A DNA stretch of 64,000 nt, taken from the IMG/VR virus record IMGVR_UViG_3300010389_000010, positions 2,953 to 66,952 of that record; one strand, written 5' to 3'. Every line of letters begins with the position of its first letter. The first letter of the stretch is position 1. Positions 1-60,364 of this stretch are shown piece after piece. Source of the stretch: a virus. Position numbers and translations under genes: made by a program. The notes beneath the pieces were generated by a model that was given only the letters and a program-made list of their open reading frames with translations, made no database searches and had not been told where the DNA came from.

Positions 1-219
1 CTGTTTGTCCCAAGGGATAGCGAAGCCCTCATCAGGCTTCAGAAGGATGTGCCGGAAGACTTCCGCACGGAGGAGTCCGCCTTCATCTTCCTTGGGTTTG
101 AGTTTGATGCCTACACCATCGCCTCGTATTTCGTCCGCGATGGTTACAGCGTCATGATCAATGACCGCGTTTGGTCTGGGCCTGAAGACGCCAAAGAACT
201 CTTCGACCTGCACGGATAA
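1..219 (+). CDS. Hypothetical protein, 5'-truncated by the window edge
   Basis: Frame 1 is open from base 1 (LFVPRDSEAL...ELFDLHG) to TAA at 217-219, directly before leader repeat 1. Confidence 0.7.
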   Translation: MFVPRDSEALIRLQKDVPEDFRTEESAFIFLGFEFDAYTIASYFVRDGYSVMINDRVWSGPEDAKELFDLHG

Positions 220-220
220 C

Positions 221-244
221 ACCCGCAATCATGCACAAAGGGAA
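221..244 (+). repeat. Leader repeat R1 (ACCCGCAATCATGCACAAAGGGAA)
   Basis: Matches consensus ACCY(G/T)CAATCATG(C/A)A-N2-3-AAGGAGAC; ATG at 251. Confidence 0.85.
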
Positions 245-250
245 ATCAGT

Positions 251-958
251 ATGAACTACATCAGCACAATTCCGCCCGAAATCGAGGAATACACCTTCTC
301 CGAACTGTCTCCGGAGGCACAGCAACACGCCATTGAGAAATGGTGTGAGACTGCCGGCGAACACATGGACTACGAATGGTGGGACTGCACCTATGACAGC
401 TTCAAAGCGGTCGCCACCATGATGGGTTACGACATCAGCAATATGTATTTCTCCGGCTTCTGGTGCCAGGGTGATGGCGCCTGCTTTGAAGGTGGGTGGA
501 GTCCGCCTGTTAATCCATATGAGATGCTCTGCAAGGTGCTCGACGAGTACCCTAAATGGGAGGAAATCCACGAGATCGCCCTGACACTGGCCGAGTGCGC
601 CGATGCGCTTGAGGATATGTGGGTTTCCTGCACCCTGACACACTCAGGGAGGTACTGCCACGAGAATACCGTCTCGATCGATGTGTCAATCGATTTCCCA
701 GAGGACTACGATGATTGGGATATCGCCAAGCAATCCGCCCATCGCGCAATCTGGATGGCGCGTGGACTCCCGGATCCTGATGATCCGCTTGACACTTGTG
801 GGTGGAGCGATGTTCTTCATGAAACATCCAAATCCCTCATGCGGATCCTGTATCGCATGTTGGAAGAGGATTACGAGTATCAGACCGGAGAGGAAGAGGC
901 CCGATATCGCTTGAGTGATGGCGATGATCTGTTTGATGCGGAAGGAGACATGGTATGA
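251..958 (+). CDS. Very acidic conserved phage/plasmid protein (YFSGFWxQGDGACF family)
   Basis: Motif YFSGFWCQGDGACFEG and C-terminal LYRMLEEDYEY; start chosen after the R1 RBS. Confidence 0.8.
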   Translation: MNYISTIPPEIEEYTFSELSPEAQQHAIEKWCETAGEHMDYEWWDCTYDSFKAVATMMGYDISNMYFSGFWCQGDGACFEGGWSPPVNPYEMLCKVLDEYPKWEEIHEIALTLAECADALEDMWVSCTLTHSGRYCHENTVSIDVSIDFPEDYDDWDIAKQSAHRAIWMARGLPDPDDPLDTCGWSDVLHETSKSLMRILYRMLEEDYEYQTGEEEARYRLSDGDDLFDAEGDMV

Positions 959-1377
959 GCAATTTTAGATTCCGCGTAGCTTTAGATGCCAGGGTTTATG
1001 GAGAGGTGGAGGCCGAAGCCGATAGCCTTGATGAGGCGCTGGAATTATGCACATCCAAGTATATCAGTGACAAATTCGTACCCGATACCGACGAAAATAG
1101 CGTCGACCCCAGTGAACAGAATGATGTCTTCATTATCGAAGGCATAGACGATGATGATGAAGAGTTTCAATGGACAGACTGTGGTGTGACTCTTGATGAT
1201 GACATGACCATCTGCTGGTCCACCTTTGTCTTGAAAGAAGAGTGGAAGGCCCTCACCCCGCTTCTCAACAAGATCGAAGATCCCCCCCCAATTCTTGTCG
1301 CACTACGCGACAGGTTTAACCGTCAAATGGCAGCCTATGTGGCCGACCGGATGACACAACACGACCCTCAATCATGA
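955..1377 (+). CDS. Acidic hypothetical protein
   Basis: ATGA overlap with the upstream stop; D/E-rich; stop codon falls inside R2. Confidence 0.8.
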   Translation: MSNFRFRVALDARVYGEVEAEADSLDEALELCTSKYISDKFVPDTDENSVDPSEQNDVFIIEGIDDDDEEFQWTDCGVTLDDDMTICWSTFVLKEEWKALTPLLNKIEDPPPILVALRDRFNRQMAAYVADRMTQHDPQS

Positions 1378-1385
1378 GCAAAGGA
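1364..1385 (+). repeat. Leader repeat R2 (ACCCTCAATCATGAGCAAAGGA)
   Basis: Consensus match; ATG at 1393. Confidence 0.85.
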
Positions 1386-1392
1386 ATGCACC

Positions 1393-2289
1393 ATGAATGC
1401 ACATACCCAGACTACCACCGGTGGGATATCCGACCGGGCCCTCGTTGTCAGCCTCACCATCTCTCAATGGTCTGGCCGACGCCTTGATCGCAAGATCACC
1501 GATGAAGTGAACCGCGATCACAATGCCGCTGCAGATGCAGGACGCTACAACAAGCTCCTGTTGCCCAAGGCAGCGCTTGATCCCATCCAGAAGGTGGTGA
1601 GCGAGACACGCAACGACTTCCTTCAGCGCACCCTTCCGTGGCTGAATGATGGCTCCCGTATCATGGCATCCATGGCCTTTCTGGACCATAAGCAATGGCT
1701 GAGTGGGCAGCGTGGCAAGTTCGACATTGCCGTGAACGATTTCCTTGCCGACTACGACAAGTATGTCCTTGAGGCACAGGTCCGTCTCAATGGCATGTTT
1801 GACCCGACGGACTACCCTGGTAAGGATGAGATTGCTTCCCGCTTCTCAATGAATGTCCGTGTCATGCCTGTACCTGAATCGGAAGACTTCCGTGTGGATA
1901 TGAGCGACGATATGGTGCAGGAGATCAAAGCCGAGATCACCAACAGCGTGAACTCTGCCGTGAATGAGGCCGTGTCCGATGTTTACCGGCGTGTTGCTGA
2001 TGTCACCGGCCGCATGGTTGAACGCCTCACCGCGTACAAGCCAGCCGAAGGCAAAGGCCAGAAGTCCGAAGGTATCTTCCGTGACTCACTGGTCGAGAAC
2101 GTGCGTGATCTTACCTCAATCATGCCAATGCTCAACATCACCGGAGATCCACGGCTTACCCGCATTGCGGATGAACTGGTTGATATCTCCAGGTTCGATG
2201 CATCGGTATTGCGTGAGGATCCTGTTGTCCGTGAGAACGTGGCGACTGAGGCTCAGCGCATCCTCGACTCCATCTCTGACTACCTCTGA
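1393..2289 (+). CDS. DUF3150-like protein
   Basis: LVVSLTISQWSGRR, AGRYNKLL, FLADYD and FDPTDYP resemble DUF3150-type proteins found beside MoxR/vWA genes. Confidence 0.65.
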   Translation: MNAHTQTTTGGISDRALVVSLTISQWSGRRLDRKITDEVNRDHNAAADAGRYNKLLLPKAALDPIQKVVSETRNDFLQRTLPWLNDGSRIMASMAFLDHKQWLSGQRGKFDIAVNDFLADYDKYVLEAQVRLNGMFDPTDYPGKDEIASRFSMNVRVMPVPESEDFRVDMSDDMVQEIKAEITNSVNSAVNEAVSDVYRRVADVTGRMVERLTAYKPAEGKGQKSEGIFRDSLVENVRDLTSIMPMLNITGDPRLTRIADELVDISRFDASVLREDPVVRENVATEAQRILDSISDYL

Positions 2290-2582
2290 TGGACCGGCAA
2301 GAAATCATCCGGCGTGCCCTTGGTGCGCCGGATATTATCCAAGGTGATGACACGATGTGGTGCACATTCGCTTTCCCTTGTGGAGGCGGGAGTGAAAAGT
2401 TTGAATACCAGGTTTACTACTGGCAAGACACCAATGAGTTTGAGTTCTTCAAGCGTCGAATGGACACTTACGACAAGGTCGATCTGCCAGTGAAAATGCA
2501 CCAACTCATCATGAATTGTTTAACCCCAGAATGCTTGGCACATTGTGCCGCATTGAGAATGACAGGAGAAGACCATGGGTGA
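2289..2582 (+). CDS. Small hypothetical protein with C-terminal L-x5-A-x5-RM tag
   Basis: TGATG coupling to the upstream gene; ends LTPECLAHCAALRMTGEDHG. Confidence 0.8.
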   Translation: MDRQEIIRRALGAPDIIQGDDTMWCTFAFPCGGGSEKFEYQVYYWQDTNEFEFFKRRMDTYDKVDLPVKMHQLIMNCLTPECLAHCAALRMTGEDHG

Positions 2583-3117
2583 CAGAGTATGGGCGTCCAT
2601 CGAGATCGGTGGACATATCAACAGCTTCGAAGCATTGGATGATTTGGTCAAGGCTATCCTTGATGAAGGAATCACATGCACCGAGACTGATATATACCTG
2701 AGCACAAGGCAAAAAGTTCTGAAGGCTTTGCACCACTGCGTTTCAGCCAACAAGCCAGTCGAGTTCTCTGGAGATGAGGTCAATTACGGCAAGTTCGGAG
2801 CAATAGACAGCGTCGTGGAGGAATATGGCTTGTGTTCCTCGACCAAATACCAAGCCGGTGGCGGGTTCCCAGAAGGTATCACAACAATCACCCTTGATGG
2901 CCGGGAGTACAACACTGCAACTTGTGAAGATGATCCAGTCATATGTCTATATGAGTTGGAGAACGCCGTCGGTGATGAAAGCAAGCCACTGAAAGATGTC
3001 CTGCTGGATATCGCTCAACTCATGTCCTACGCAAGATCATGCTCTGGGAGAGACCTTCCAAAGCTAACCATTGAGCCGCACATCCTTGCCGGATCCCGCA
3101 TGGTCGCGGCTGAATAA
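2575..3117 (+). CDS. Acidic hypothetical protein
   Basis: GGAG RBS, overlaps the upstream stop; ends LTIEPHILAGSRMVAAE. Confidence 0.8.
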   Translation: MGDRVWASIEIGGHINSFEALDDLVKAILDEGITCTETDIYLSTRQKVLKALHHCVSANKPVEFSGDEVNYGKFGAIDSVVEEYGLCSSTKYQAGGGFPEGITTITLDGREYNTATCEDDPVICLYELENAVGDESKPLKDVLLDIAQLMSYARSCSGRDLPKLTIEPHILAGSRMVAAE

Positions 3118-3127
3118 CAGACTACCA

Positions 3128-3155
3128 ACCCCCAAAAATGGAAACCAAAGGAGAC
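3128..3155 (+). repeat. Leader repeat R3, degenerate (ACCCCCAAAAATGGAAACCAAAGGAGAC)
   Basis: Partial consensus match; ATG at 3160. Confidence 0.6.
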
Positions 3156-3159
3156 TACA

Positions 3160-4143
3160 ATGAGCATCAAGAACGCAATCGCAATCCTGTCCGACTATCT
3201 GGACAATGACATACCCGCCTTCATGTGGGGCCCGCCAGGTGTCGGCAAGTCCGACGCTGTCAGACAGGTGGCCGCCGCTAGGAAGGTTGGTATGCTCGAC
3301 TTCCGTGCAATCCTGCGTGATCCGGTGGATCTTCGCGGTCTGCCTTCCGTTGCCGATGGCAGCGCAAGGTGGCTTCCACCTTCCGACCTGCCCAATGCAG
3401 AGCGTGACGGGAAGGAAGGCATCCTGTTTCTGGATGAACTTAACGCCGCACCTGCATCCGTGCAGGCTGCATGCTTCGGCCTTGTTCTCGACCGCAAGGT
3501 GGGTGAGTACAAGCTCCCAGATGGATGGCGTATCGTTGCAGCTGGTAACCGTCAGTCAGACCGTGCCGCTGCCCAACGCATGCCGACGGCTCTTGCCAAC
3601 AGGTTCGCTCACATTGACGTCAATGCAGACCACGAAGACTTCGTGGAGTGGGCTGAAGCCAACGGCATTGATCATGGTGTGATCGACTTCATCAAGTTCC
3701 GGCCCGGCCTGTTGCACAACATGGAAGGTGCAGATCAGCGTGCGTTCCCGACTCCACGGTCATGGTCCATGGTTTCGAGACTGAGCAAGCTCCCCATGGA
3801 GAGGCAACTCACCGCTGTTGAAGGTGTGGTTGGCAAGGGAGCCGCGGCCGAGTACATGGGCTTCGTGCGCCTTCGCAACCAGCTTCCTTCACTCAAGGAG
3901 ATCCTGGCCAATCCAGAAACGACCAGAGTTCCTGAGGAGCCGGGCGCAAAGTATGCCGTTTCCTCTGGTATCGCTCGTGTGGTGGACAAGGACACTCTGG
4001 GTGCTGGTGTGATCTATATGCGCCGTCTGCCGAAAGAGTTCTCTGTCATGATGATGACCGATGCGGTGCGTCGTGATAAGTCCCTGCGTGAAACCAAAAC
4101 CTACATCGATTGGGTCGCGGAGAACCAAGATGTCATCTTTTGA
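3160..4143 (+). CDS. MoxR-like (AAA_5-type) AAA+ ATPase
   Basis: Walker A GPPGVGKS, Walker B ILFLDELN, sensor IVAAGNR, arginine finger ALANRF, PTPRSW. Confidence 0.92.
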   Translation: MSIKNAIAILSDYLDNDIPAFMWGPPGVGKSDAVRQVAAARKVGMLDFRAILRDPVDLRGLPSVADGSARWLPPSDLPNAERDGKEGILFLDELNAAPASVQAACFGLVLDRKVGEYKLPDGWRIVAAGNRQSDRAAAQRMPTALANRFAHIDVNADHEDFVEWAEANGIDHGVIDFIKFRPGLLHNMEGADQRAFPTPRSWSMVSRLSKLPMERQLTAVEGVVGKGAAAEYMGFVRLRNQLPSLKEILANPETTRVPEEPGAKYAVSSGIARVVDKDTLGAGVIYMRRLPKEFSVMMMTDAVRRDKSLRETKTYIDWVAENQDVIF

Positions 4144-4486
4144 TTGGCCGGATAGATTCCGCGATCCTCTAACGGGCTGGTTTCTGACCGGCCCGTTCAT
4201 TGTCTCCCAAGTTCCGGATGAGCTTGTCATCTTCACGTTCCATAGTGATGATGGAATGCAGTTTATCTCTCTGATCTTTGGAAAGATCAAAGGCGCCGGT
4301 CATTGGGGCCTGAGTATGTCAGATCAGGACGGGCAATTTTTCACATTTACTGATGGATTCGATATGAAAGCGCCTGGGAATATACGTCCCATGACGGAGG
4401 TATATCTGAGGGAAATTGAATTCCTGAAGGGGAGACTGACAACCAAGCAACACGCCTTGGTAACATCCATCAAGATGAGGGGATAG
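4130..4486 (+). CDS. Small hypothetical protein with C-terminal L-x5-A-x5-KM tag
   Basis: GGAG RBS before ATG 4130; ends LTTKQHALVTSIKMRG. Confidence 0.75.
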   Translation: MSSFDWPDRFRDPLTGWFLTGPFIVSQVPDELVIFTFHSDDGMQFISLIFGKIKGAGHWGLSMSDQDGQFFTFTDGFDMKAPGNIRPMTEVYLREIEFLKGRLTTKQHALVTSIKMRG

Positions 4487-4487
4487 C

Positions 4488-4841
4488 ATGTACCATTTCA
4501 AGATAATCTATCCCCCCATTGCCGATCCAGAAAACGAAAAACATCTGAAGGAACGGGTGGCTACCCCAAGTTTCATCACGCTCAGCTACTATTTCAATTG
4601 CGTGATGATCGACGGTTCAATCCAGTTCTACAATCTGTCTTGGATCTGTAAAACATCCAGGTTTAATGTGACCAACCTCACTGGCAAAAAGGAGCAGAAC
4701 ATAGTCAACCCACATATGTTCACCGGTGACCTGTCAAAGCGGCTCACCATATCATCTGTTCAGAAAGTGAAAGATGCCTTGGTTCCAAGGCTTAAACCGG
4801 AGCACCTTGCCCAGATAACATATGCAAGGATGCTCAACTAA
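4488..4841 (+). CDS. Small hypothetical protein with C-terminal L-x5-A-x5-RM tag
   Basis: Starts 1 nt after the upstream stop; ends LKPEHLAQITYARMLN. Confidence 0.75.
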   Translation: MYHFKIIYPPIADPENEKHLKERVATPSFITLSYYFNCVMIDGSIQFYNLSWICKTSRFNVTNLTGKKEQNIVNPHMFTGDLSKRLTISSVQKVKDALVPRLKPEHLAQITYARMLN

Positions 4842-4863
4842 CCTGCAATCATGCACGAAAGGA
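4841..4863 (+). repeat. Leader repeat R4 (ACCTGCAATCATGCACGAAAGGA)
   Basis: Consensus match; ATG at 4870. Confidence 0.85.
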
Positions 4864-4869
4864 AACACC

Positions 4870-6030
4870 ATGAACGCTGAAACCCTACTGGTAGCAGCAA
4901 AGACAACGCTGATGTTCGACAACCCATTCTTCGGGATGCTGTGTGTGCAGCTCCCACTGGTTGAAGATCCGTCATGCGAAACCATGGCGACCGATGGTCA
5001 GAAGCTGTACTTCAATTCCAAGTTCGTCCAGTCGCTGACCAAGGCAGAGCTGGTCTTTGTTGTCGCCCATGAAGTGCTGCACAATGCCTTCGAGCACCAT
5101 GTCCGGAGACAGCACCGAGATCCACGGCTCTGGAACATAGCCGCTGACTACGCAATAAACGGCGAGCTCGTGGAATGCGGTTTCACCATGCCCAAGTGCG
5201 GCCTGATCCACAAGGACTTCACCGGACTGAGTGCGGAAGAGATCTACCGGATCCTCGGAGACGACAGCAAGAGACCTGCCGATCTGCCAGATCCTGGCGC
5301 AATCCCTGGCTCAAGTGATCCCGGGGGTTGCGGCCGCATCATGGATGCAGCTGACGCCCATGACAAGGATGGACTCGAGAGAGCAAGGGCAGAGGCACGG
5401 ATGATGGTCGCTCAAGCCGCTGCGGTGGCTGCCAAGAAGGCAGGCAAGCTGTCTGCCAATCTGCAGCGCCTGATCAACACCCTGCTCACACCTGTAGTGG
5501 ACTGGCGTGCTGTGTTGCGTCGTTTCATCGACGAGTCCAACTCTCGTGACTACTCATGGACCAGACCAAACCGTAGATACCTCAGCTCTGGCTTCATCCT
5601 GCCGGGCATGGTGACGGATGGCATATCTCACATCACCATAGCCGTGGACACATCAGGCTCGATCGACAACGATATCCTGTCCCGCTTCGCTTCCGAGATC
5701 AACGGTGCCTTCGGTGATGGGATGATCGACAAGATCACTGTGATCTATGCGGATAGCAATGTGTGTGCTGTCGAACGGTTCGAGGCTGGCGATGAGCTGA
5801 AGCTCAACCCTGCTGGTGGTGGTGGCACTGCATTCTCCGACACCTTCGACTGGATTGCGAAGAACGAACCCGACACCAACGCCATCATCTACTTCACAGA
5901 TCTCTATGTCTCTGACTTCGGCCAGGATCTGGGGATCCCCACCTTGTGGGCAGTATATGGTGACAGTCGAGAGTTCGAGAGACTGTCTGCAAAGGTTCCC
6001 TTCGGTGAATGTGTCAGCGTGTCAGAATGA
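4870..6030 (+). CDS. DUF2201-type putative metallopeptidase fused to a vWA-like domain
   Basis: TMATDG, HEVLH (HExxH), WNIAADYAIN; vWA MIDAS AVDTSGSI, GGGGTAF, YFTD. Confidence 0.9.
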   Translation: MNAETLLVAAKTTLMFDNPFFGMLCVQLPLVEDPSCETMATDGQKLYFNSKFVQSLTKAELVFVVAHEVLHNAFEHHVRRQHRDPRLWNIAADYAINGELVECGFTMPKCGLIHKDFTGLSAEEIYRILGDDSKRPADLPDPGAIPGSSDPGGCGRIMDAADAHDKDGLERARAEARMMVAQAAAVAAKKAGKLSANLQRLINTLLTPVVDWRAVLRRFIDESNSRDYSWTRPNRRYLSSGFILPGMVTDGISHITIAVDTSGSIDNDILSRFASEINGAFGDGMIDKITVIYADSNVCAVERFEAGDELKLNPAGGGGTAFSDTFDWIAKNEPDTNAIIYFTDLYVSDFGQDLGIPTLWAVYGDSREFERLSAKVPFGECVSVSE

Positions 6031-6437
6031 AGAGGACAAAACCAATAAACATGCACGGCCAGACAGGCACGTCGTGCAAGTTCGTTAAGATCCTCGGCCC
6101 TTTCAAGATGTCATCCACAAAGGACAGTGTGACATGGTATTTTGCAGGGAAGCTGCATCAGGGTCATGGATACCCAAGCAATGACCGGATATCGAGCGGC
6201 TATTGCATGCCAATTCTGATCTTCAATTATCGTTTGGGTAAATGGCGTGCAACCTGGGCAAGTCTGAAAAATGATGACGTCAATTCTATAACGTCCATGA
6301 TGGACAGCCTGTTCCCAACATCAAACATGAACACCACTGACTACCCGAGTGGAAAGCTGACCGATGTTCTCAAGGAGATGCTCACCAGAGAAGACATGGC
6401 AAGGGCAGCGTCCGCCCGGATGACCGGAGAACACTAA
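6027..6437 (+). CDS. Small hypothetical protein with C-terminal L-x5-A-x5-RM tag
   Basis: ATGA overlap with the vWA gene stop; ends LTREDMARAASARMTGEH. Confidence 0.75.
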   Translation: MKRTKPINMHGQTGTSCKFVKILGPFKMSSTKDSVTWYFAGKLHQGHGYPSNDRISSGYCMPILIFNYRLGKWRATWASLKNDDVNSITSMMDSLFPTSNMNTTDYPSGKLTDVLKEMLTREDMARAASARMTGEH

Positions 6438-6462
6438 CCCGCAATCATGCGAACAAGGAGAC
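6437..6462 (+). repeat. Leader repeat R5 (ACCCGCAATCATGCGAACAAGGAGAC)
   Basis: Consensus match; ATG at 6467. Confidence 0.85.
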
Positions 6463-6466
6463 TGCA

Positions 6467-6892
6467 ATGAAATACTCAATAAGCCAGCTGGTTGAGGCCA
6501 CGATCTGCGTCGGAGGTCAAGGCGACAGCATGGACAACAGCTACAAGTTCCTCGTGAAGAAGAAAGGCGACGCCGAATATCATGCCATTCTTCTCAATGT
6601 GAAGACGCAGGATCGGAAGAGAGGCCATCGATTTAGCGACATCGACAAACCAAAGATCGAATACAAAACCAGATGGCTTTACGCCGGCCACTATTCGATC
6701 GATCTCGAGCAACCCTTCAAGGATCTTGCCCTCTCCGACGTGGTGGAGTCAGACAAGAAGCTGGTGGACGCACTGTTTGACCGTCTGCCTGCCACACACA
6801 AGGCGCAGATCGCTTCAGTTAGAATGCTGGCAGGACAGCGAGGGCGCCATGCAAAAAAGGAAATGGAACATGAAAAAAGTGAACGAATTTAA
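6467..6892 (+). CDS. Small hypothetical protein with near-C-terminal L-x5-A-x5-RM tag
   Basis: Strong RBS in R5; contains LPATHKAQIASVRMLAG. Confidence 0.8.
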   Translation: MKYSISQLVEATICVGGQGDSMDNSYKFLVKKKGDAEYHAILLNVKTQDRKRGHRFSDIDKPKIEYKTRWLYAGHYSIDLEQPFKDLALSDVVESDKKLVDALFDRLPATHKAQIASVRMLAGQRGRHAKKEMEHEKSERI

Positions 6893-7304
6893 TTACCATG
6901 ACTACAACGTCGAGCAGTTCAATCTTTCCCACATGGAGTCAGCTTTAGCCGTCTGGGAATGGATCAATGAGGTCACATTGATCGTCGAAGGACATGACTG
7001 GCACATCACTGAGTGGGTGGATCTGCGTGGAAACATCGGATCCATTGAATTGCGCATGCAATCTGTACCGATAGGTATCTGGGTGGATGAAGTCATTCAA
7101 GGCGTGTTCAAGTTAATCGGCTCTGATTCCTATGAGGACACCTTCCATGAGATCGACATGTTGTCCTGGGATTTCGAAGTGTTTCCCCACATCTTGAGTA
7201 ATTACCTGAAGGACAAAGCAGGCAAGCCTGTTATCTATCAACAGGACTTCCCCAATCCAGAAGATATCGCAATGGTCTTGGCCGCCCAGATCCGGATGGC
7301 CTGA
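6870..7304 (+). CDS. Hypothetical protein
   Basis: AAGGA RBS before ATG 6870; ends PNPEDIAMVLAAQIRMA. Confidence 0.75.
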   Translation: MKKVNEFNYHDYNVEQFNLSHMESALAVWEWINEVTLIVEGHDWHITEWVDLRGNIGSIELRMQSVPIGIWVDEVIQGVFKLIGSDSYEDTFHEIDMLSWDFEVFPHILSNYLKDKAGKPVIYQQDFPNPEDIAMVLAAQIRMA

Positions 7305-7311
7305 CACCAAC

Positions 7312-7337
7312 CCCCGCAATTATGCACGAAAGGAGAC
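7312..7337 (+). repeat. Leader repeat R6 (CCCCGCAATTATGCACGAAAGGAGAC)
   Basis: Consensus match with one core mismatch; ATG at 7342. Confidence 0.85.
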
Positions 7338-7341
7338 TACA

Positions 7342-7827
7342 ATGAAACTCGAACTGAAAAATATCCAAGTCAACACCGGCATGTCAGAGGAAACTCACTG
7401 CTACAGCGCGTCCGTATGGATGGACGGCAAGAGAGTCGGTGAAGTTGGCAACCACGGCCACGGTGGGTGCGATGAACAGCGCATTGATCAGGCTACCCTG
7501 GCAAAGATTGATGCCTGGCTCACTGCTCATCCGCCAAAGGGATGGAATGAAGACAACGCAGTCCATGGATACAACATCCCATACGATCTGGAAATGTGGT
7601 GCGGTGATCAGATCAATGCTCATCTGGTCGAGCGTGATTTCTCAAGGATCCTGAAGACCAAGGTTCTCTTCGCTCACGATGGAAAACTCTATGAGATCCC
7701 GAGAAAGAAACACCCTCTCCAGGCGATCGTTGACCACATCAAGAAAAAATATGGTGGCAATACACAGATCCTCAACACCATGAAGCGGCCTGAAGCTGTT
7801 GAGATCTTCAACAAGATGGCTGCCTAA
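7342..7827 (+). CDS. Conserved phage hypothetical protein (SEETxCY...NxGHGG motif)
   Basis: Strong RBS; motif MSEETHCYSA...VGNHGHGGCD. Confidence 0.8.
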   Translation: MKLELKNIQVNTGMSEETHCYSASVWMDGKRVGEVGNHGHGGCDEQRIDQATLAKIDAWLTAHPPKGWNEDNAVHGYNIPYDLEMWCGDQINAHLVERDFSRILKTKVLFAHDGKLYEIPRKKHPLQAIVDHIKKKYGGNTQILNTMKRPEAVEIFNKMAA

Positions 7828-7832
7828 CAACA

Positions 7833-7854
7833 TGGCCGGGGTTCGCCCCGGTCA
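7833..7854 (+). other. 9-bp GC hairpin with UUCG loop and no U-tail
   Basis: TGGCCGGGG-TTCG-CCCCGGTCA, directly before R7. Confidence 0.6.
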
Positions 7855-7857
7855 CCA

Positions 7858-7880
7858 ACCCTCAATCATGAACAAAGGAG
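7858..7880 (+). repeat. Leader repeat R7 (ACCCTCAATCATGAACAAAGGAG)
   Basis: Consensus match; ATG at 7888. Confidence 0.85.
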
Positions 7881-7887
7881 AACTTCC

Positions 7888-8433
7888 ATGGATATATGGA
7901 TCGTATGCGTCGACAGCAAACACGGTGTCGACTTCAATGCATTCACCGAAGAGGCCGCAGCACAAGCGTACATCAAAGGCATTGTTGATGAGAGCGTGCA
8001 GAAGGCAATTAAGAGCGGCTTCGTCAAAGAAGACGAGATCCCGCCATACGGAGCCGATGAAGGATGGCGAGATGCCATGGAGCTTGTCGACTGCGAGACC
8101 TACATCTATCTCGAGTCTCGAGAGCTGCCCGTCGTGCCTTCCAGCGTGTTGCGGGATGGAATTGCAGAGATCCACAATCTTCTGCACCAGATATCCCAAA
8201 TGCGTGGCATGTTTGGAGATGAAGATGGCACCATTGCCGAGGCTGTGGATAGCGCTGAGGAATTCTGCGAACAGCACAAGAACACCGACGCGGCCCAGCC
8301 CTTCAGCAAGGCTCTATCTTTGCTGATCGAAAACTTCTCTGCCTGGGATGATGAAGAGGCCAGCGTCAAGGAAGAGCACGCCGAACTCATCGAAAGAACC
8401 AAAGCGTTTCTCAATCAGGAGGGATGGGCATGA
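7888..8433 (+). CDS. Very acidic hypothetical protein
   Basis: Strong RBS in R7; E/D-rich. Confidence 0.8.
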   Translation: MDIWIVCVDSKHGVDFNAFTEEAAAQAYIKGIVDESVQKAIKSGFVKEDEIPPYGADEGWRDAMELVDCETYIYLESRELPVVPSSVLRDGIAEIHNLLHQISQMRGMFGDEDGTIAEAVDSAEEFCEQHKNTDAAQPFSKALSLLIENFSAWDDEEASVKEEHAELIERTKAFLNQEGWA

Positions 8434-8813
8434 CCTATGAACCCTACACCAACAAGGACAGGGTGCAGGCTGTTGAGCAGGCAATTCTATCATTCGCCGA
8501 AGAGATGGGGCTTGATCCAGATATGGATGCAGATGGTCCTGTCACTGTCGCTGGAGATATGATCGCCAACATCCTTCATTGGGTACAGCAGCAAGACTCC
8601 AGGATCTCCGCGCTCAAGGCGGCTAAGTCTGGCATCGGAAACTACGTTACCGAGCAGTACATCGACTACAACGCCGATGAAGTGGATGAGCTTGGTCCTC
8701 AATCATCTGTCTGCATCACCGTCCTTTGTAATGATCAGGTGTGGGAGTCCAACACCTATGATCGAACCAAGATCTTCGATGCCGAAGACAACGAGATCGA
8801 AGGGGAGGAATGA
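8430..8813 (+). CDS. Acidic hypothetical protein
   Basis: GGAGG RBS and ATGA overlap. Confidence 0.8.
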   Translation: MTYEPYTNKDRVQAVEQAILSFAEEMGLDPDMDADGPVTVAGDMIANILHWVQQQDSRISALKAAKSGIGNYVTEQYIDYNADEVDELGPQSSVCITVLCNDQVWESNTYDRTKIFDAEDNEIEGEE

Positions 8814-8865
8814 TCATCCGCCTTATCCGTCCGGTCAGCCGGGCGGATCGGGGGCGATGATGCCC

Positions 8866-8891
8866 AACTGCAACTATGCAAACAAGGAGAC
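8866..8891 (+). repeat. Leader repeat R8 (AACTGCAACTATGCAAACAAGGAGAC)
   Basis: Partial consensus match; ATG at 8896. Confidence 0.75.
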
Positions 8892-8895
8892 TACC

Positions 8896-10053
8896 ATGAC
8901 TGCTATTCAGAAAACAAAAGCCGCCGTCAACAAGAGCGCGATCTTCGATCTGGCTTCCATCAAGTCAGCCATTGTCCTAGCTGACAAGGTGGTGGAGAAG
9001 CGCAACACCATACCTGTTCTGTCCAACTTCCTGATCACACAGTCCGGCAAGGTGGCCACCATCAAGGCAACCGACCTGGACCTGATGGTGTCGATCGATG
9101 TTCCGGTGGAGGAAGGCAAGATCTCACCCTTCACCTGTGTTGCTGACGACCTGAAGAAGATCGTCATGAAGGCAGCGCCAGGATCTAACATCCTGATCAG
9201 CGAGGACGTAGACCAGACGCTCGTGCAGATAGGCCCGAAGGTGAAGGTCTGGCTCAACCGTGATGCCGAAGTGAAGGACTTCCCTGAATTTGATATGGGC
9301 GAGAAGCCAATGCACTACTTCAGCCTCACGGTTGGTGATCTGTGCGAAGCCTTCAAGAACGTGCAGCCTGCCATCTCCACCGAAGAGACCAGGTACTACC
9401 TCAACGGGATCTACGCCCATGAGTCAGCTGGTCAGATGATCTTCGTTGCAACGGACGGTCATCGTCTTCTGAAGAAGGAGCTGCCTGCTCCCAAGGGTGC
9501 GAAGGATATGTTTGGATCCATCATACCACGGAAGGCAGTGAAGTTCCTGATCGATTGCATGAAGGGAATGGATGTCAACGAGTACGTCACCATCCGTTCT
9601 CAGGATGCGAAGATGGAATTCAGTGGTGGCAACTGGCAGGTGATCACCAAGCTGATCGATGGCAACTTCCCTGACTACACTCGTGTAATCCCGGCCGCAA
9701 TCGATACCCCGGCCGTGTTCACCGCTGGTCAGATCTCAAGCTCTCTTGATCAGGCGATCGTGCTGGCTTCAGAACGTGGCAGAGCAGTAGCGCTGCGGAT
9801 TGGAGATGGCGAAGGTGCCACCATCACCTGCAAGAACCCTGAGAAAGGCGAGACCAAGGTTGAGGTCGAGTGCTTCTACAAAGGTGAGTGGATGGAGATC
9901 GGTTTCAATTCTTCATACCTGAAGGAAATCGTGTCTATCCTGGCACCAGCTGGCGGTGAGGTATCATTGAACGTCACCAACCCAGGCGCTCCAACCCTGA
10001 TCACCGGTGAGAACGACGGCCTTTGCGCTGTCCTGATGCCGGTTCGCATCTAA
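8896..10053 (+). CDS. dnaN: DNA polymerase III beta sliding clamp homologue
   Basis: VEKRNTIPVLSN, ATDLD, ISTEETRYYLNG, VATDGHRL, KLIDGNFPDY, IGFNSSYL, C-terminal VLMPVRI. Confidence 0.95.
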   Translation: MTAIQKTKAAVNKSAIFDLASIKSAIVLADKVVEKRNTIPVLSNFLITQSGKVATIKATDLDLMVSIDVPVEEGKISPFTCVADDLKKIVMKAAPGSNILISEDVDQTLVQIGPKVKVWLNRDAEVKDFPEFDMGEKPMHYFSLTVGDLCEAFKNVQPAISTEETRYYLNGIYAHESAGQMIFVATDGHRLLKKELPAPKGAKDMFGSIIPRKAVKFLIDCMKGMDVNEYVTIRSQDAKMEFSGGNWQVITKLIDGNFPDYTRVIPAAIDTPAVFTAGQISSSLDQAIVLASERGRAVALRIGDGEGATITCKNPEKGETKVEVECFYKGEWMEIGFNSSYLKEIVSILAPAGGEVSLNVTNPGAPTLITGENDGLCAVLMPVRI

Positions 10054-10312: not shown

Positions 10313-10338
10313 ACCTGCAATCATGCACATAAGGAGAC
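10313..10338 (+). repeat. Leader repeat R9 (ACCTGCAATCATGCACATAAGGAGAC)
   Basis: Consensus match; ATG at 10345. Confidence 0.85.
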
Positions 10339-12303: not shown

Positions 12304-12328
12304 ACCTCAATCATGAGAACAAGGAGAC
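12304..12328 (+). repeat. Leader repeat R10 (ACCTCAATCATGAGAACAAGGAGAC)
   Basis: Consensus match; ATG at 12333. Confidence 0.85.
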
Positions 12329-56604: not shown

Positions 56605-58833
56605 TTAAGCGCCTGGCTGTTTGTAGAAGCCGCGGAAGTCGATCGGAGCTGCGCCGAAGTCGTGGCGAACTTTGATCTCCATGCCGTCCACATCGAACCC
56701 AACGCGGGTTTCAGTGTACGGAGCTTCGTTGCCTTCGAGGTACGCATACTCGATCGTGTCGATCAGCGAAGGTGCTGCGACAAGATAGAATGCGGTAGCG
56801 CTCTCAGCTGAAAGCTTGGACTCCTCGATCGGTGTCAGGGACTGCACCCAACTTGGGCGAACATCCGCTTCCTTGGTTGCCTGGATTTGTCCAAAGATCT
56901 GGGCAACTTCCATGGAAAGCTCCGGAGGATACAGCAGGAATGATGGTGAGACGTCGATCAGATCGCGCTCATCAAGATCCTTCTGTTTGCCCATGATCAC
57001 CCGGCCGGCGTTGATTGACGCCGTGCTCAGTGCAGCAATAGCAGCACCTGCAGCCAAGTTGTTGTGAGCGGCGGAGAACAGAGCGTTACCGTCACCCATA
57101 ACGACGTTGGAGGTAATCAGATCCCAGACTGTCTTGGACTCGAGCCGGGCAACAGATGCACCGAATTTCTGTCCAAGACTGCCGATCACGCCGAGATCAT
57201 CGTTGATCAGAAGCTGGCGGGTAACACCGATGATGCGACCGTAGGTGGCGATCCGGTATTTCTCTTTGCCTTCGCTCAGAGTGGTACGGGTGTACTCACC
57301 ATGCTCGTTGACCTTTTTGAGATCGCCAACTTCACCAACCTGCACTCGGTGCATGTCGCGGAAATCCGATGCCGAGGATTGACGGCAGAAAGGCTGGAAA
57401 GTCTGCGGCAGTGCCTGATAACCCTGCAAGAGAACGCGGTTGGTGACCTGTTCCATGATAATCGGGAAATCAGAGGTTGAGTGGAAAGCACGGCTGGCAA
57501 GATCTGTACGACTCATGCCGCGAGTGCTGTTGCCGTTGCGGCGTTCACATTCCCGGACAATCTCCAGGAGAGGCAAGCCACGCCATTCACGAGCACCTTC
57601 TTCAAGTGTGACGGTGCGAGGGTCAAGGCGGTGGCTGAGCGCGTTCACGATCATTGAGCGACGGGTATCAACCTCGTCACGAACGATCTCGAAAGGAGCG
57701 TGCTCGAAAGTCTCGGAATGAGACTGGCGCTCTGCGACTGCTTCGAGAGCAAGGTCGCGGAATGCTTCGACGCTGGTACCGTCAAGCTCATGCTTGCGGA
57801 TCAGGTCTTCCTTCATACCAAGGCGGTTGCCCAGGCTGCGGATCTCACTGGTCCGTTTGCGCTCAGCTGTACGAGCTTCGCTTGCTGCCTCATTGGCGAT
57901 TTCACGAGCGCGGGTTTCATCCACGCCAGTTGATCGCTGTTGGCCATCGGAGCGGTTGTTCTTGGCGGCGTCGTCGTCAGCGCGTTTCTTCGCTGCGTCG
58001 TCGTCAGCCTTCCGGGAAGCTTCAGCAGCTGCAGTAGCGGCAGCCTCATCTTCCTTGCGCTTGTCGTCTGCAGATTTGGTTTCTGCCTCGATGGTGGATG
58101 TCAGGCGTTTGCGAAGATCTTCATCGCTTTCACCGTCTTTCCGGACCAGGTCGTAAAACCTGGCCATGCCTTCGAGCTTTTCGCCAGCCGCTTCTTTAAC
58201 GGCTTTCAATTTGTCGGTCATGGTTCTGACTTCCTTGTTTGTTGCCGATGGGACGGCTGGTTGGTCATCGTGCCGGACCACGATGCAATCAAACATTTCG
58301 CTTTGATCAGATGACCTGATCTTTGCGGCCGGGTCGGCTGGTATTGCTACCGCCGATATTTCCAAGGGTTCCCAATCGGTCGCCCTGAGAATTGGTATCT
58401 GGTCACCTTCACCCTCTTCCTTCTCGTACTTGTGAATGCGGTAACCGACGGAAATGCTGGAGATGATGCCGTCTCTGATGTCTTGGACAACGCCCTTGAC
58501 TTCATCGCGGCCAGAAAGGCGGATGGAGCAAACGCCACTGCCTTTGACGATCTTTGCCGTTCCAGGAACTACCGTTCCAATGACACGGCTGAGATCCCAG
58601 GAGTCGTGACTGTCCAACACAGGAGCGCCACTGTTCATGCGATCGAGCCTGATATCGGCAGGCTTCATGGAAAGTTCTTCCATGTACTCGCCATGCTCAT
58701 ATGAGCGGCGGCGAACGCCAGCTCCGGTAGACCAGATCACTTCAACGGTGTTGTCTTCCTCATTGAAGCTTTCGGCACGGATGAGCGCCGGGTTATAACC
58801 GCGCCCCACCTTGATTTGCTCAGTTCGGCTCAT
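56605..58833 (-). CDS. Fused prohead protease-scaffold-major capsid protein
   Basis: N-terminal APVLDSHD, SVGYRI, WEPLEISAV; charged linker; C-terminal TSDFP, TYGRIIGVTRQ, EYAYLEG, KVRHDFG. Confidence 0.92.
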   Translation of the reverse strand: MSRTEQIKVGRGYNPALIRAESFNEEDNTVEVIWSTGAGVRRRSYEHGEYMEELSMKPADIRLDRMNSGAPVLDSHDSWDLSRVIGTVVPGTAKIVKGSGVCSIRLSGRDEVKGVVQDIRDGIISSISVGYRIHKYEKEEGEGDQIPILRATDWEPLEISAVAIPADPAAKIRSSDQSEMFDCIVVRHDDQPAVPSATNKEVRTMTDKLKAVKEAAGEKLEGMARFYDLVRKDGESDEDLRKRLTSTIEAETKSADDKRKEDEAAATAAAEASRKADDDAAKKRADDDAAKNNRSDGQQRSTGVDETRAREIANEAASEARTAERKRTSEIRSLGNRLGMKEDLIRKHELDGTSVEAFRDLALEAVAERQSHSETFEHAPFEIVRDEVDTRRSMIVNALSHRLDPRTVTLEEGAREWRGLPLLEIVRECERRNGNSTRGMSRTDLASRAFHSTSDFPIIMEQVTNRVLLQGYQALPQTFQPFCRQSSASDFRDMHRVQVGEVGDLKKVNEHGEYTRTTLSEGKEKYRIATYGRIIGVTRQLLINDDLGVIGSLGQKFGASVARLESKTVWDLITSNVVMGDGNALFSAAHNNLAAGAAIAALSTASINAGRVIMGKQKDLDERDLIDVSPSFLLYPPELSMEVAQIFGQIQATKEADVRPSWVQSLTPIEESKLSAESATAFYLVAAPSLIDTIEYAYLEGNEAPYTETRVGFDVDGMEIKVRHDFGAAPIDFRGFYKQPGA

Positions 58834-60364
58834 TGCCATCTCCATTTGCGTTAGGATCCTGGCCCCATTGGATTTGCCCGTTGACGGCCACACGACGAGG
58901 ATCTGAATCGAGAACAACTTCGTTGTCATCCAAGATCTTGTTCATCTCGATGATCTCTTTCATCACCTGGTCTGGATTACGTCCGGACTTGGCGATGACA
59001 CTCTTCAGGGATTTCTTGCCCATACGAATGTTCAAGAGATCCGCCCGGGCATCATCGATCGGTTGGATGTCTTCGAACTCTGGGGGCTGCCACTCACAAG
59101 GATAATCACCTTCAGGCAAAGCACCTACGGCGATCGCCATATCGATAAACCAATCCCATGTTGGCTGGCAGAATGAGTGGATAATGACGTTGTGCTGGAT
59201 CGATGTGACCAGCCTGCGGAAATTCAACATGCCGATGCGGCCGGTGGCAAAGTTTGCCTGGCTCCAGTCTCCGGTCAGCAATTCGTATGGCATGCGCGAA
59301 CCGTTGGCGATGCGACGGTACTGCGTGCGCAAGTACATCTCCATGCCAACAGAGATGGCAGGGTTGTTGAACTTTACGTCCTTGCCGTTCTCCAGATATG
59401 CAAACATACCTGGTTCGAAGCGCTCGATCGGAAAACCGTTTGCATCGGTGACACCGTTGGACTTGTTGCTGTCTCCATCAACTGTCTCTTCAAGGCCAAG
59501 ATCCGGAACCTCGTTGTCGCCAGGTATGACAACACCGACGACACAAGCTTCGATCTTCTTCCTGACAGCTTCTGACTGGTTGTACTCATCAACATCCCTC
59601 AGGGGAATGATGCATGAAGCCAACCATGGAGCACCGCGTACCTGTGTGCGGTTCTTCTCGTAAACGTGGCAGATCTCGGAACTCGGAACGAATTTCGATT
59701 GATTGCTGAATACAGACATATCTCCAGATCCTGGATGGTTCTGGTGCATCCAGTATCCACGGCGACGGCCGATCACATCGAACTCGATTCCGTTCACAAC
59801 CGATCGGCTACGTTTTGGATCTGACTGTCTGGTCTCGTCAATGAATTCAGGCTCGAGCACCTGAAGCTGCAATGGGATCCTCAGATTGTCCTGTGGTCTG
59901 CGAACACGCCGACGGACAAGAACCTCACCACTTTCAACCATGGTACGGGCGACCAGGTTCTGGATCCCGTAAAAGTCCATCGTGCCATCGCTGTAGCAAT
60001 TCTTTGCCCAAGCAGCGAACAGATCATCGACAAGCCGGTTGCGATCTGCATCTGGTCCGGATGACCTTGGCTTGATACCTGTTCCAACAAGATAGTTGGC
60101 CCATGTGCTGACAATGCCGGTTGCGGTCGGATTGTTCCGAACAAGATCCCTGGAGCGATCTCTCAGTGTGCGACTGGCTGCGGATATCTCGACATCGGCA
60201 GATGATGACGTTGTCCGCCAGTTCTGCGTGCGACGACCCCTTGATGCCCCGTCATACTTGCGAAAATTCGCACCTTCGAGGATTTCCATGCGCTTACGTG
60301 CAGAGACACGCTTGAGACCAGCCGACGGGCTGACATATGAGACAAGTCTGTCGAAGATGTTCAT
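58820..60364 (-). CDS. Lambda-family portal protein
   Basis: YDGASRGRRT, RSRDLVRNNP, LQLQVLEPE, GIEFD..GRR.GYW, RG.PWL. Confidence 0.95.
   Translation of the reverse strand: MNIFDRLVSYVSPSAGLKRVSARKRMEILEGANFRKYDGASRGRRTQNWRTTSSSADVEISAASRTLRDRSRDLVRNNPTATGIVSTWANYLVGTGIKPRSSGPDADRNRLVDDLFAAWAKNCYSDGTMDFYGIQNLVARTMVESGEVLVRRRVRRPQDNLRIPLQLQVLEPEFIDETRQSDPKRSRSVVNGIEFDVIGRRRGYWMHQNHPGSGDMSVFSNQSKFVPSSEICHVYEKNRTQVRGAPWLASCIIPLRDVDEYNQSEAVRKKIEACVVGVVIPGDNEVPDLGLEETVDGDSNKSNGVTDANGFPIERFEPGMFAYLENGKDVKFNNPAISVGMEMYLRTQYRRIANGSRMPYELLTGDWSQANFATGRIGMLNFRRLVTSIQHNVIIHSFCQPTWDWFIDMAIAVGALPEGDYPCEWQPPEFEDIQPIDDARADLLNIRMGKKSLKSVIAKSGRNPDQVMKEIIEMNKILDDNEVVLDSDPRRVAVNGQIQWGQDPNANGDGNEPN

Follow-up and report, generated by a model that had tools for sequence, protein, structure and literature searches.

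A linked gene trio for a MoxR-class ATPase, a putative zincin-vWA protein and a DUF3150-like protein on phages, genomic islands and conjugative plasmids

We analyzed a 64,000-nucleotide stretch of viral DNA (hereafter the window), corresponding to bases 2953 to 66952 of the 67,165-bp IMG/VR virus record IMGVR_UViG_3300010389_000010, which is rated 100% complete, and focused on three genes near its start that encode a DUF3150-like protein, a MoxR-class AAA+ ATPase, and a protein joining a putative zincin metallopeptidase domain to a von Willebrand factor type A (vWA) domain. The record represents a myovirus-type phage (sheathed tail) that is probably temperate and has no giant virion RNA polymerase. 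The trio sits in a 15-kb plus-strand accessory and replication arm that starts near record base 600 and extends to window base 12.3 kb, and this arm also encodes a beta clamp and a DNA methyltransferase and faces a minus-strand DnaB/primase block. A sequence-only reading of the window had grouped the three open reading frames (ORFs) as a tripartite module; all three were found on the plus strand at the coordinates it gave, and their Pfam and PHROG matches were far beyond chance. The three genes are as follows.

1393-2289, plus strand: DUF3150-like protein, 298 amino acids, isoelectric point (pI) 5.0; Pfam DUF3150, E 1.1e-4, 22.1 bits.
3160-4143, plus strand: MoxR-class (AAA_5) AAA+ ATPase, 327 amino acids, N4 gp24 homologue; Pfam AAA_5, PHROG 1297.
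4870-6030, plus strand (ORF open from 4822): putative zincin (HExxHxxxxH) and vWA protein with a metal-ion-dependent adhesion site (MIDAS), N4 gp25 homologue; Pfam DUF2201_N and DUF2201.

Inspection of the ATPase confirmed that both Walker motifs are intact, with Walker A (GPPGVGKS) at nucleotides 3229-3252 and D92-E93 of Walker B (LFLDE) at nucleotides 3433-3438. The protein scored 31 bits against Pfam AAA_5 (cut-off, 22) and matched PHROG 1297, named 'ATPase', at 1.5e-95. Across 168 homologues, residues G27, K30, D92, N130, R148, and R200 were 90 to 97% conserved, with N130, R148, and R200 at 97%; which of the conserved arginines would be the arginine finger is something we infer. The best sequence match in the PDB was the AAA domain of midasin (1.4e-7), and the window ATPase shares 33% identity with gp24 of phage N4 (E 9e-48). 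The sequence-only reading had proposed an ATP-driven unfoldase/protease directed at phage clients or host defence proteins; MoxR-class ATPases, however, are remodelling chaperones and are not proven threading unfoldases.

The zincin-vWA protein matched two Pfam families in N-to-C order, DUF2201_N at 4e-53 (181.2 bits against a cut-off of 23.2) and the DUF2201 vWA domain at 4.7e-22 (78.8 bits against 26.4). The HEVLH motif occupies nucleotides 5068-5082, with H92 at 5095-5097, and the DTSGS motif of the MIDAS occupies nucleotides 5647-5661 and is completed by T336 and D360. Zincin residues H83, E84, H87, and H92 were 92 to 96% conserved in 159 homologues, while MIDAS residues D276, S278, S280, T336, and D360 were 95 to 98% conserved in about 160 non-identical homologues, and no substitution in either set was seen among five distant members (N4 gp25, phiFa_30, the MinM2 protein, one from a Cupriavidus plasmid, and the window protein itself). 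The sequence-only reading presumed that the catalytic residues are kept across the family, and the catalytic and MIDAS residues were indeed at least 90% conserved. Judged by this conservation in sequence, the motor, MIDAS, and HExxH residues are under purifying selection.

In the AlphaFold2 (AF2) model of this protein (predicted local distance difference test [pLDDT] score, 89.3), the C-terminal half adopts a vWA fold, for which the best VIA match gave a Z score of 12.9 and a root mean square deviation of 2.7 over 150 residues, with a Foldseek probability of 1.00; the VIA matches included the NorD VWA domain (Z 11.4), BchD (10.7), and the Rea1 MIDAS domain (10.0 to 10.7). The reading of the locus as MoxR plus vWA plus putative zincin was upheld. 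A tblastn search found N4 gp25 at 4e-37 with 30% identity and reached 738 phage records, including N4-like podoviruses, RaK2-type jumbo phages, rV5-like phages, and Thermus phage phiFa. The label 'HNH endonuclease' carried by PHROG 1314 is a misnomer, as the Pfam matches of the zincin-vWA protein include no HNH family, and the family is widely mislabelled as 'HNH endonuclease' or 'homing endonuclease' in GenBank phage annotations.

The DUF3150-like protein scored just below the gathering cut-off of Pfam DUF3150 (PF11348; 22.1 versus 24.9 bits), and would therefore belong to a divergent, largely viral branch; 54 of 98 close family members matched the Pfam family at an E value of 0.01 or below, the best at 2.4e-8. 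The kinship is further seen in the predicted fold and in the Cupriavidus plasmid, whose members annotated DUF3150 sit in the same trio. Its AF2 model (pLDDT 94.4) has a small alpha/beta N-terminal half followed by a long helical bundle, and the best structural match in BFVD was a protein named DUF3150 (TM 0.84, E 7e-23). About 38 positions are near-invariant in the family, including W26, D32, K54, R73, W83, D140-Y-P, D165-F-R, N236, N248, D252, and R280. With a pI of 5.0 (family median, 5.9), the protein is acidic, which does not suggest a DNA binder.

Searches for a relative outside the family were negative. Foldseek against the PDB matched no solved fold (best E 0.035), a PDB profile search gave no match, and the BFVD and ESM Atlas models returned only the protein's own family. 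The VIA-wide comparison yielded generic helical-bundle matches to residues 163-298 with Z up to 9.3, under the helical noise. These searches therefore barely probed the N-terminal alpha/beta half. The N-terminal extensions of two members, P0017 and P0033, held no Pfam domain. In 55 loci, an antisense ORF (L139 1039-2166, minus strand, and 57 other ORFs; median, 375 amino acids) overlaps the DUF3150-like and ATPase genes, and it is most likely a shadow frame of these conserved genes and not a gene.

The linkage of the three genes was assessed from 160 DUF3150-like loci, 80 from species genomes and 80 from viral contigs, whose ORFs were scanned with hidden Markov models (HMMs) of the three families; a locus was taken as informative when its two flanks were each 4 kb or longer, and as linked when both partners lay within 7 kb on the same strand. 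Both partners were found in 52 of 54 informative genome loci and in all 56 informative viral loci (108/110), which establishes the three genes as a real conserved module that recurs in other genomes, as had been proposed. Two gene orders were seen, ATPase-DUF3150-vWA in 67 loci and DUF3150-ATPase-vWA, the order in the window, in 41, and the DUF3150-like gene always preceded the vWA gene. Starting from the vWA gene, the ATPase gene was nearby in 24 of 25 informative IMG/VR loci and the DUF3150-like gene in 19 of 25.

The trio was found in Alphaproteobacteria, Acidobacteriota, Planctomycetota, Desulfobacterota, Pseudomonadales, one WWE3 metagenome-assembled genome (MAG), and one Thermoplasmatales MAG, where its carriers were prophages, genomic islands, and viral contigs. 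It also occurs in cyanophage MinM2 and on two conjugative Burkholderiales plasmids, of which the Cupriavidus one has a PRTRC system alongside. The locus is best described as a self-contained mobile cassette, shared by phages, prophages, genomic islands, and conjugative plasmids. Clustering of all genes revealed no other shared neighbour, as no gene family occurred in more than 28 of 193 loci; the lineage-specific neighbours, namely PRTRC proteins, RNase H, Gp157, and the beta clamp, are replication or establishment genes. The genes flanking the trio in acidobacterial islands (L059, L070, L092, L095, L103, and further loci of Acidobacteriaceae) are those of a PRTRC cassette (ThiF, Prok-E2_D, and PRTRC_E), RNase H, and Sipho_Gp157.

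The tripartite reading held for the ATPase/zincin-vWA core and needed correction for the third gene, which is optional. The DUF3150-like gene was not found in N4, in phiFa, or in several viral contigs, and it is also missing from the closest relative of the window phage, the provirus L003 (IMGVR_UViG_2706794521_000001; 67,892 bp, 100% complete), whose ATPase and vWA proteins are 60 to 62% identical to those of the window. No hidden analogue came to light in these genomes: BLASTP of the DUF3150-like protein against N4 gp20 and phiFa_35 gave no match, and a 98-sequence HMM of the family run against all ORFs of loci without the gene gave a best E value of 0.6. The DUF3150-like gene is almost never found without the pair, but the pair does occur without it. 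The two core genes are thus autonomous, and the DUF3150-like protein is an accessory that depends on them.

Several known systems resemble parts of this module. Closest is the gp24 (AAA ATPase)/gp25 (vWFA) pair of N4, the Schitoviridae core pair of PHROG 1297 and 1314, both proteins of which are homologous to those of the window at the identities given above. The two genes are among the 14 core genes of N4-like phages and give middle transcripts (PMC4193335; PMC2784036). They are adjacent and co-oriented in N4, whereas small tagged ORFs, described below, separate them in the window phage; moreover, N4 has no DUF3150-like gene, and its giant virion RNA polymerase is absent from the window phage, which has a sheathed tail. 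In group 2.2 jumbo phages, Iyer et al. (2021) described a MoxR and metallopeptidase-vWA 'chaperone-cochaperone pair' and proposed a role in virion assembly (PMC7824862). That pair has the same two-protein architecture, and RaK2-type jumbo phages were among our tblastn matches; however, the paper names no third DUF3150 partner, and occurrence on plasmids and islands does not fit virion assembly. In Bacillus phage 0305phi8-36, an 8-kb deletion covering a MoxR-like gene, a vWA-like gene, and tRNAs was viable with a growth defect (PMC3357382).

The cellular couples NorQ-NorD, CbbQ-CbbO, RavA-ViaA, CobS-CobT/BchI-BchD, and Rea1/midasin likewise couple an AAA_5/MoxR motor to a vWA protein whose MIDAS is complete. 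The window vWA protein differs from these partners by its putative N-terminal zincin domain, and the window system differs in residing on mobile elements with no metalloenzyme or Rubisco-type client encoded nearby. The vWA-MoxR-VMAP ternary conflict systems (Kaur et al. 2020, PMC7159879) share the three-component design, and in them a peptidase can sit on the vWA protein. They are, however, immunity systems of multicellular bacteria, whereas the window system occurs on phages, including lytic ones, and on plasmids, and its DUF3150-like third component did not come up as a VMAP (no VMAP profile was used). The full-text literature matches, four for DUF2201 and one for DUF3150, contained no functional account. 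The pair has long been catalogued, and its link to DUF3150 can be read from public annotation but was not found discussed in the searchable literature.

With a little better than even confidence, we favour the reading that the locus is a remodelling and protease cassette acting during the establishment of incoming DNA. If it works like NorQ-NorD, CbbQ-CbbO, RavA-ViaA, and Rea1-MIDAS, the ATPase would form a ring and dock the vWA protein, whose MIDAS metal site would grip an acidic residue on a protein client; ATP hydrolysis would then remodel or pull the client, and the fused zinc-peptidase domain would cut it. The DUF3150-like protein may serve as a dedicated adaptor, as a regulator, or as the first client of the machine. 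The cassette would act on a host or an element protein in the cytoplasm of the host, at the time when the incoming element is becoming established and replicating. Candidate targets are a protein of host defence, a protein bound to DNA, or a pro-protein that the element itself encodes. An establishment role is preferred to virion assembly because the trio occurs on plasmids, neighbours replication genes, and lies far from virion genes.

A number of points weigh against this interpretation. The complex, the ATPase and protease activities, and the substrate rest on analogy with characterised systems, and the phase of action is read from the genomic setting. The zincin half of the protein matched M48 peptidases (E 0.008) and the minigluzincin MJ1213 (E 0.078) only weakly, and vWA matches filled the structure lists. 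The DUF3150-like protein displayed no recognisable fold or motif indicative of a role in structure and profile searches, and its absence from anywhere in the complete L003 record means that it is dispensable in some lineages. In addition, many of the 110 loci are related to one another (Acidobacteriaceae and Hyphomicrobiales dominate), so the count overstates the number of independent events. Finally, for the same pair in jumbo phages the published proposal is virion assembly (PMC7824862).

As a virion-assembly chaperone, the MoxR-vWA pair would assemble tails or heads and the peptidase would trim structural proteins, a role known for the MoxR/vWA pair of the Acidianus two-tailed virus. In addition to the published prediction, it is in keeping with the finding that some virion proteins of roseophage RPP1 are encoded near the gp24/gp25 homologues (PMC4193335). 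We nevertheless regard it as unlikely here. The virion genes of the window phage (terminase, portal, capsid-protease fusion, tail sheath, and tape measure) form a minus-strand block at about 36 to 63 kb, more than 30 kb from the trio and on the opposite strand, and the phage encodes its own protease for head maturation:

56605-58929, minus strand: head-maturation protease/major head protein fusion, 774 amino acids; PHROG 4523, 4.9e-225.

Furthermore, the trio is present on conjugative plasmids, where its annotated neighbours include no virion genes, and in PRTRC-type islands, where its recurrent neighbours include none either, and N4 gp24/gp25 are middle, not late, transcripts (PMC4193335).

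We also judge decidedly unlikely a role in metal-cofactor insertion or chelatase-like maturation of the NorQ/NorD, CoxD/CoxE, or CobS/CobT type, in which the HExxH motif would bind metal and not cut. The ATPase did match PHROG 249 ('porphyrin biosynthesis', CobS-like) weakly at 4e-10, the vWA domain resembles NorD and BchD, and 'metal chelatase-like' is the name given to such pairs in older phage papers. The match to PHROG 1297 was, however, far better (1.5e-95), and a search for CobN/BchH (PF02514) that was positive in five control genomes found none in the complete 67-kb record. Nor was any metalloenzyme client gene recurrent beside the module, and the full HExxH, including its glutamate, is conserved as in active zincins.

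It is very unlikely that the DUF3150-like gene is merely syntenic, serving a separate function and connected to the pair neither physically nor functionally. The closest relative and N4-type phages manage without it, and no longer, fused form of the protein was found, which is weak evidence. On the other hand, the 108/110 linkage persists although the gene order takes two forms, the spacers vary, and several phyla are involved, and the module has no other conserved neighbour. The least probable of these explanations is a prophage- or island-borne host defence or abortive infection system akin to the vWA-MoxR-VMAP systems. In its favour are the tripartite MoxR/vWA design, in which the peptidase takes the 'effector position' (PMC7159879), and the occurrence on islands and prophages, but PADLOC gave no match for the eight proteins tested, the third protein did not register as a VMAP (again, no VMAP profile having been used), and the pair belongs to the core genes of N4-like phages, which are strictly lytic, and was found in 738 phage records.

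The ATPase/zincin-vWA pair is a core feature of N4-like phages and is carried by at least 738 sequenced phages, and the third-partner family comprises more than 6,000 clusters (6,224 representative clusters at 50% identity). The dependence of DUF3150 on the pair, and the fact that the cassette is common to phages and conjugative plasmids and untied to virion genes, shift its likely role from particle assembly to establishment; the window locus itself adds no new principle.

Apart from the three core genes, the arm holds a set of small ORFs that share a C-terminal tag (L-x5-A-x5-[RK]-M), listed here together with an untagged ORF that lies among them.

2289-2582, plus strand: small tagged ORF, 97 amino acids.
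2575-3117, plus strand: untagged acidic ORF, 180 amino acids, between the DUF3150-like and AAA genes.
4133-4486, plus strand: small tagged ORF whose frame opens at 4061 and overlaps the end of the AAA gene.
4488-4841, plus strand: small tagged ORF, 117 amino acids, basic; BLASTP match to the 6467-6892 ORF at 7.5e-5.
6009-6437, plus strand: small tagged ORF, 142 amino acids, basic.
6467-6892, plus strand: small tagged ORF, 141 amino acids, basic, with a leader motif upstream.
About 6849-7304: possible sixth tagged ORF.

The tag is a C-terminal helix segment of about 25 residues, roughly K-L-x-D-x-L-x2-R-L-T/P-x-E-x2-A-x5-R-M, and the ORFs are dissimilar elsewhere. An iterated search with an HMM of the tag, which covered 20,094 ORFs from all six frames of the window and of every locus, gave 74 matches, all 74 on the module strand; such iteration can drift, and the 74:0 strand bias served as the control. 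Tagged ORFs were confined to the alphaproteobacterial prophage clade, at one to five per locus, and L003 retains them between its ATPase and vWA genes. Between relatives, the core proteins were 54 to 63% identical, and the tagged ORFs were mostly below BLAST detection. The 2575-3117 ORF had no match in Pfam, PHROG, NCBIfam, or PADLOC and no BLAST homologue in the four relatives compared.

The tagged small proteins may be clients or adaptors of the machine that can replace one another. They find a parallel in the peptide-processing modules described by Kaur et al., in which a zincin goes with small variable precursors whose conserved part is C-terminal (PMC7159879). A tentative and, in our view, doubtful extension is that the trio is a programmable, tag-directed remodelling and proteolysis machine, in which the MoxR ring and the zincin-vWA protein would be the constant engine, the DUF3150-like protein a fixed adaptor, and the tagged proteins interchangeable adaptors or pro-proteins, which would either bring different host proteins, such as defence factors, to the engine or themselves be activated by the peptidase. 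If true, this would be a phage and plasmid counterpart of adaptor-mediated proteolysis.

A second recurrent element of the arm is a leader motif, C.CAATCATG(N5)AAGGAG, which lies at a fixed distance ahead of start codons. The copies upstream of the core genes are as follows.

1364-1392, plus strand: leader motif C.CAATCATG...AAGGA (motif 1367-1387), ending at the DUF3150-like start codon.
3124-3159, plus strand: degenerate leader and Shine-Dalgarno sequence before the AAA gene, family D5.
4842-4869, plus strand: leader motif (motif 4844-4864) before ATG 4870 of the zincin-vWA gene.

Nine plus-strand copies were found between 224 and 12326 (224-244, 1367-1387, 4844-4864, 6440-6460, 7315-7335, 7861-7881, 8869-8889, 10316-10336, and 12306-12326), against 0.63 expected in the whole window, and one more was seen in L196 at 1733-1753. 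The motif fixes starts at 251, 4870, and 8896, and with its Shine-Dalgarno element at 4842-4869 it bears out the start at 4870 originally chosen for the zincin-vWA gene. Each core gene has an upstream leader, and the tagged ORFs are mostly without one. The leader may be a translational operator or a phage promoter; a promoter and terminator scan of window positions 1 to 9000 gave counts no better than chance.

Megablast of a 12-kb segment against 50,697 phage records found no close cultured DNA relative, and the nearest protein relatives are Hyphomicrobiales prophages (Ensifer, Brucella/Ochrobactrum, Hoeflea, and Aurantimonas). Neither NCBIfam nor PADLOC gave a match for the proteins searched. 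The beta clamp gene downstream of the module is complete:

8896-10053, plus strand: beta clamp, full three-domain; PHROG 947.

This clamp belongs to the accessory arm, and the scan of ORFs found no polymerase; in related prophages a clamp also comes after the trio.

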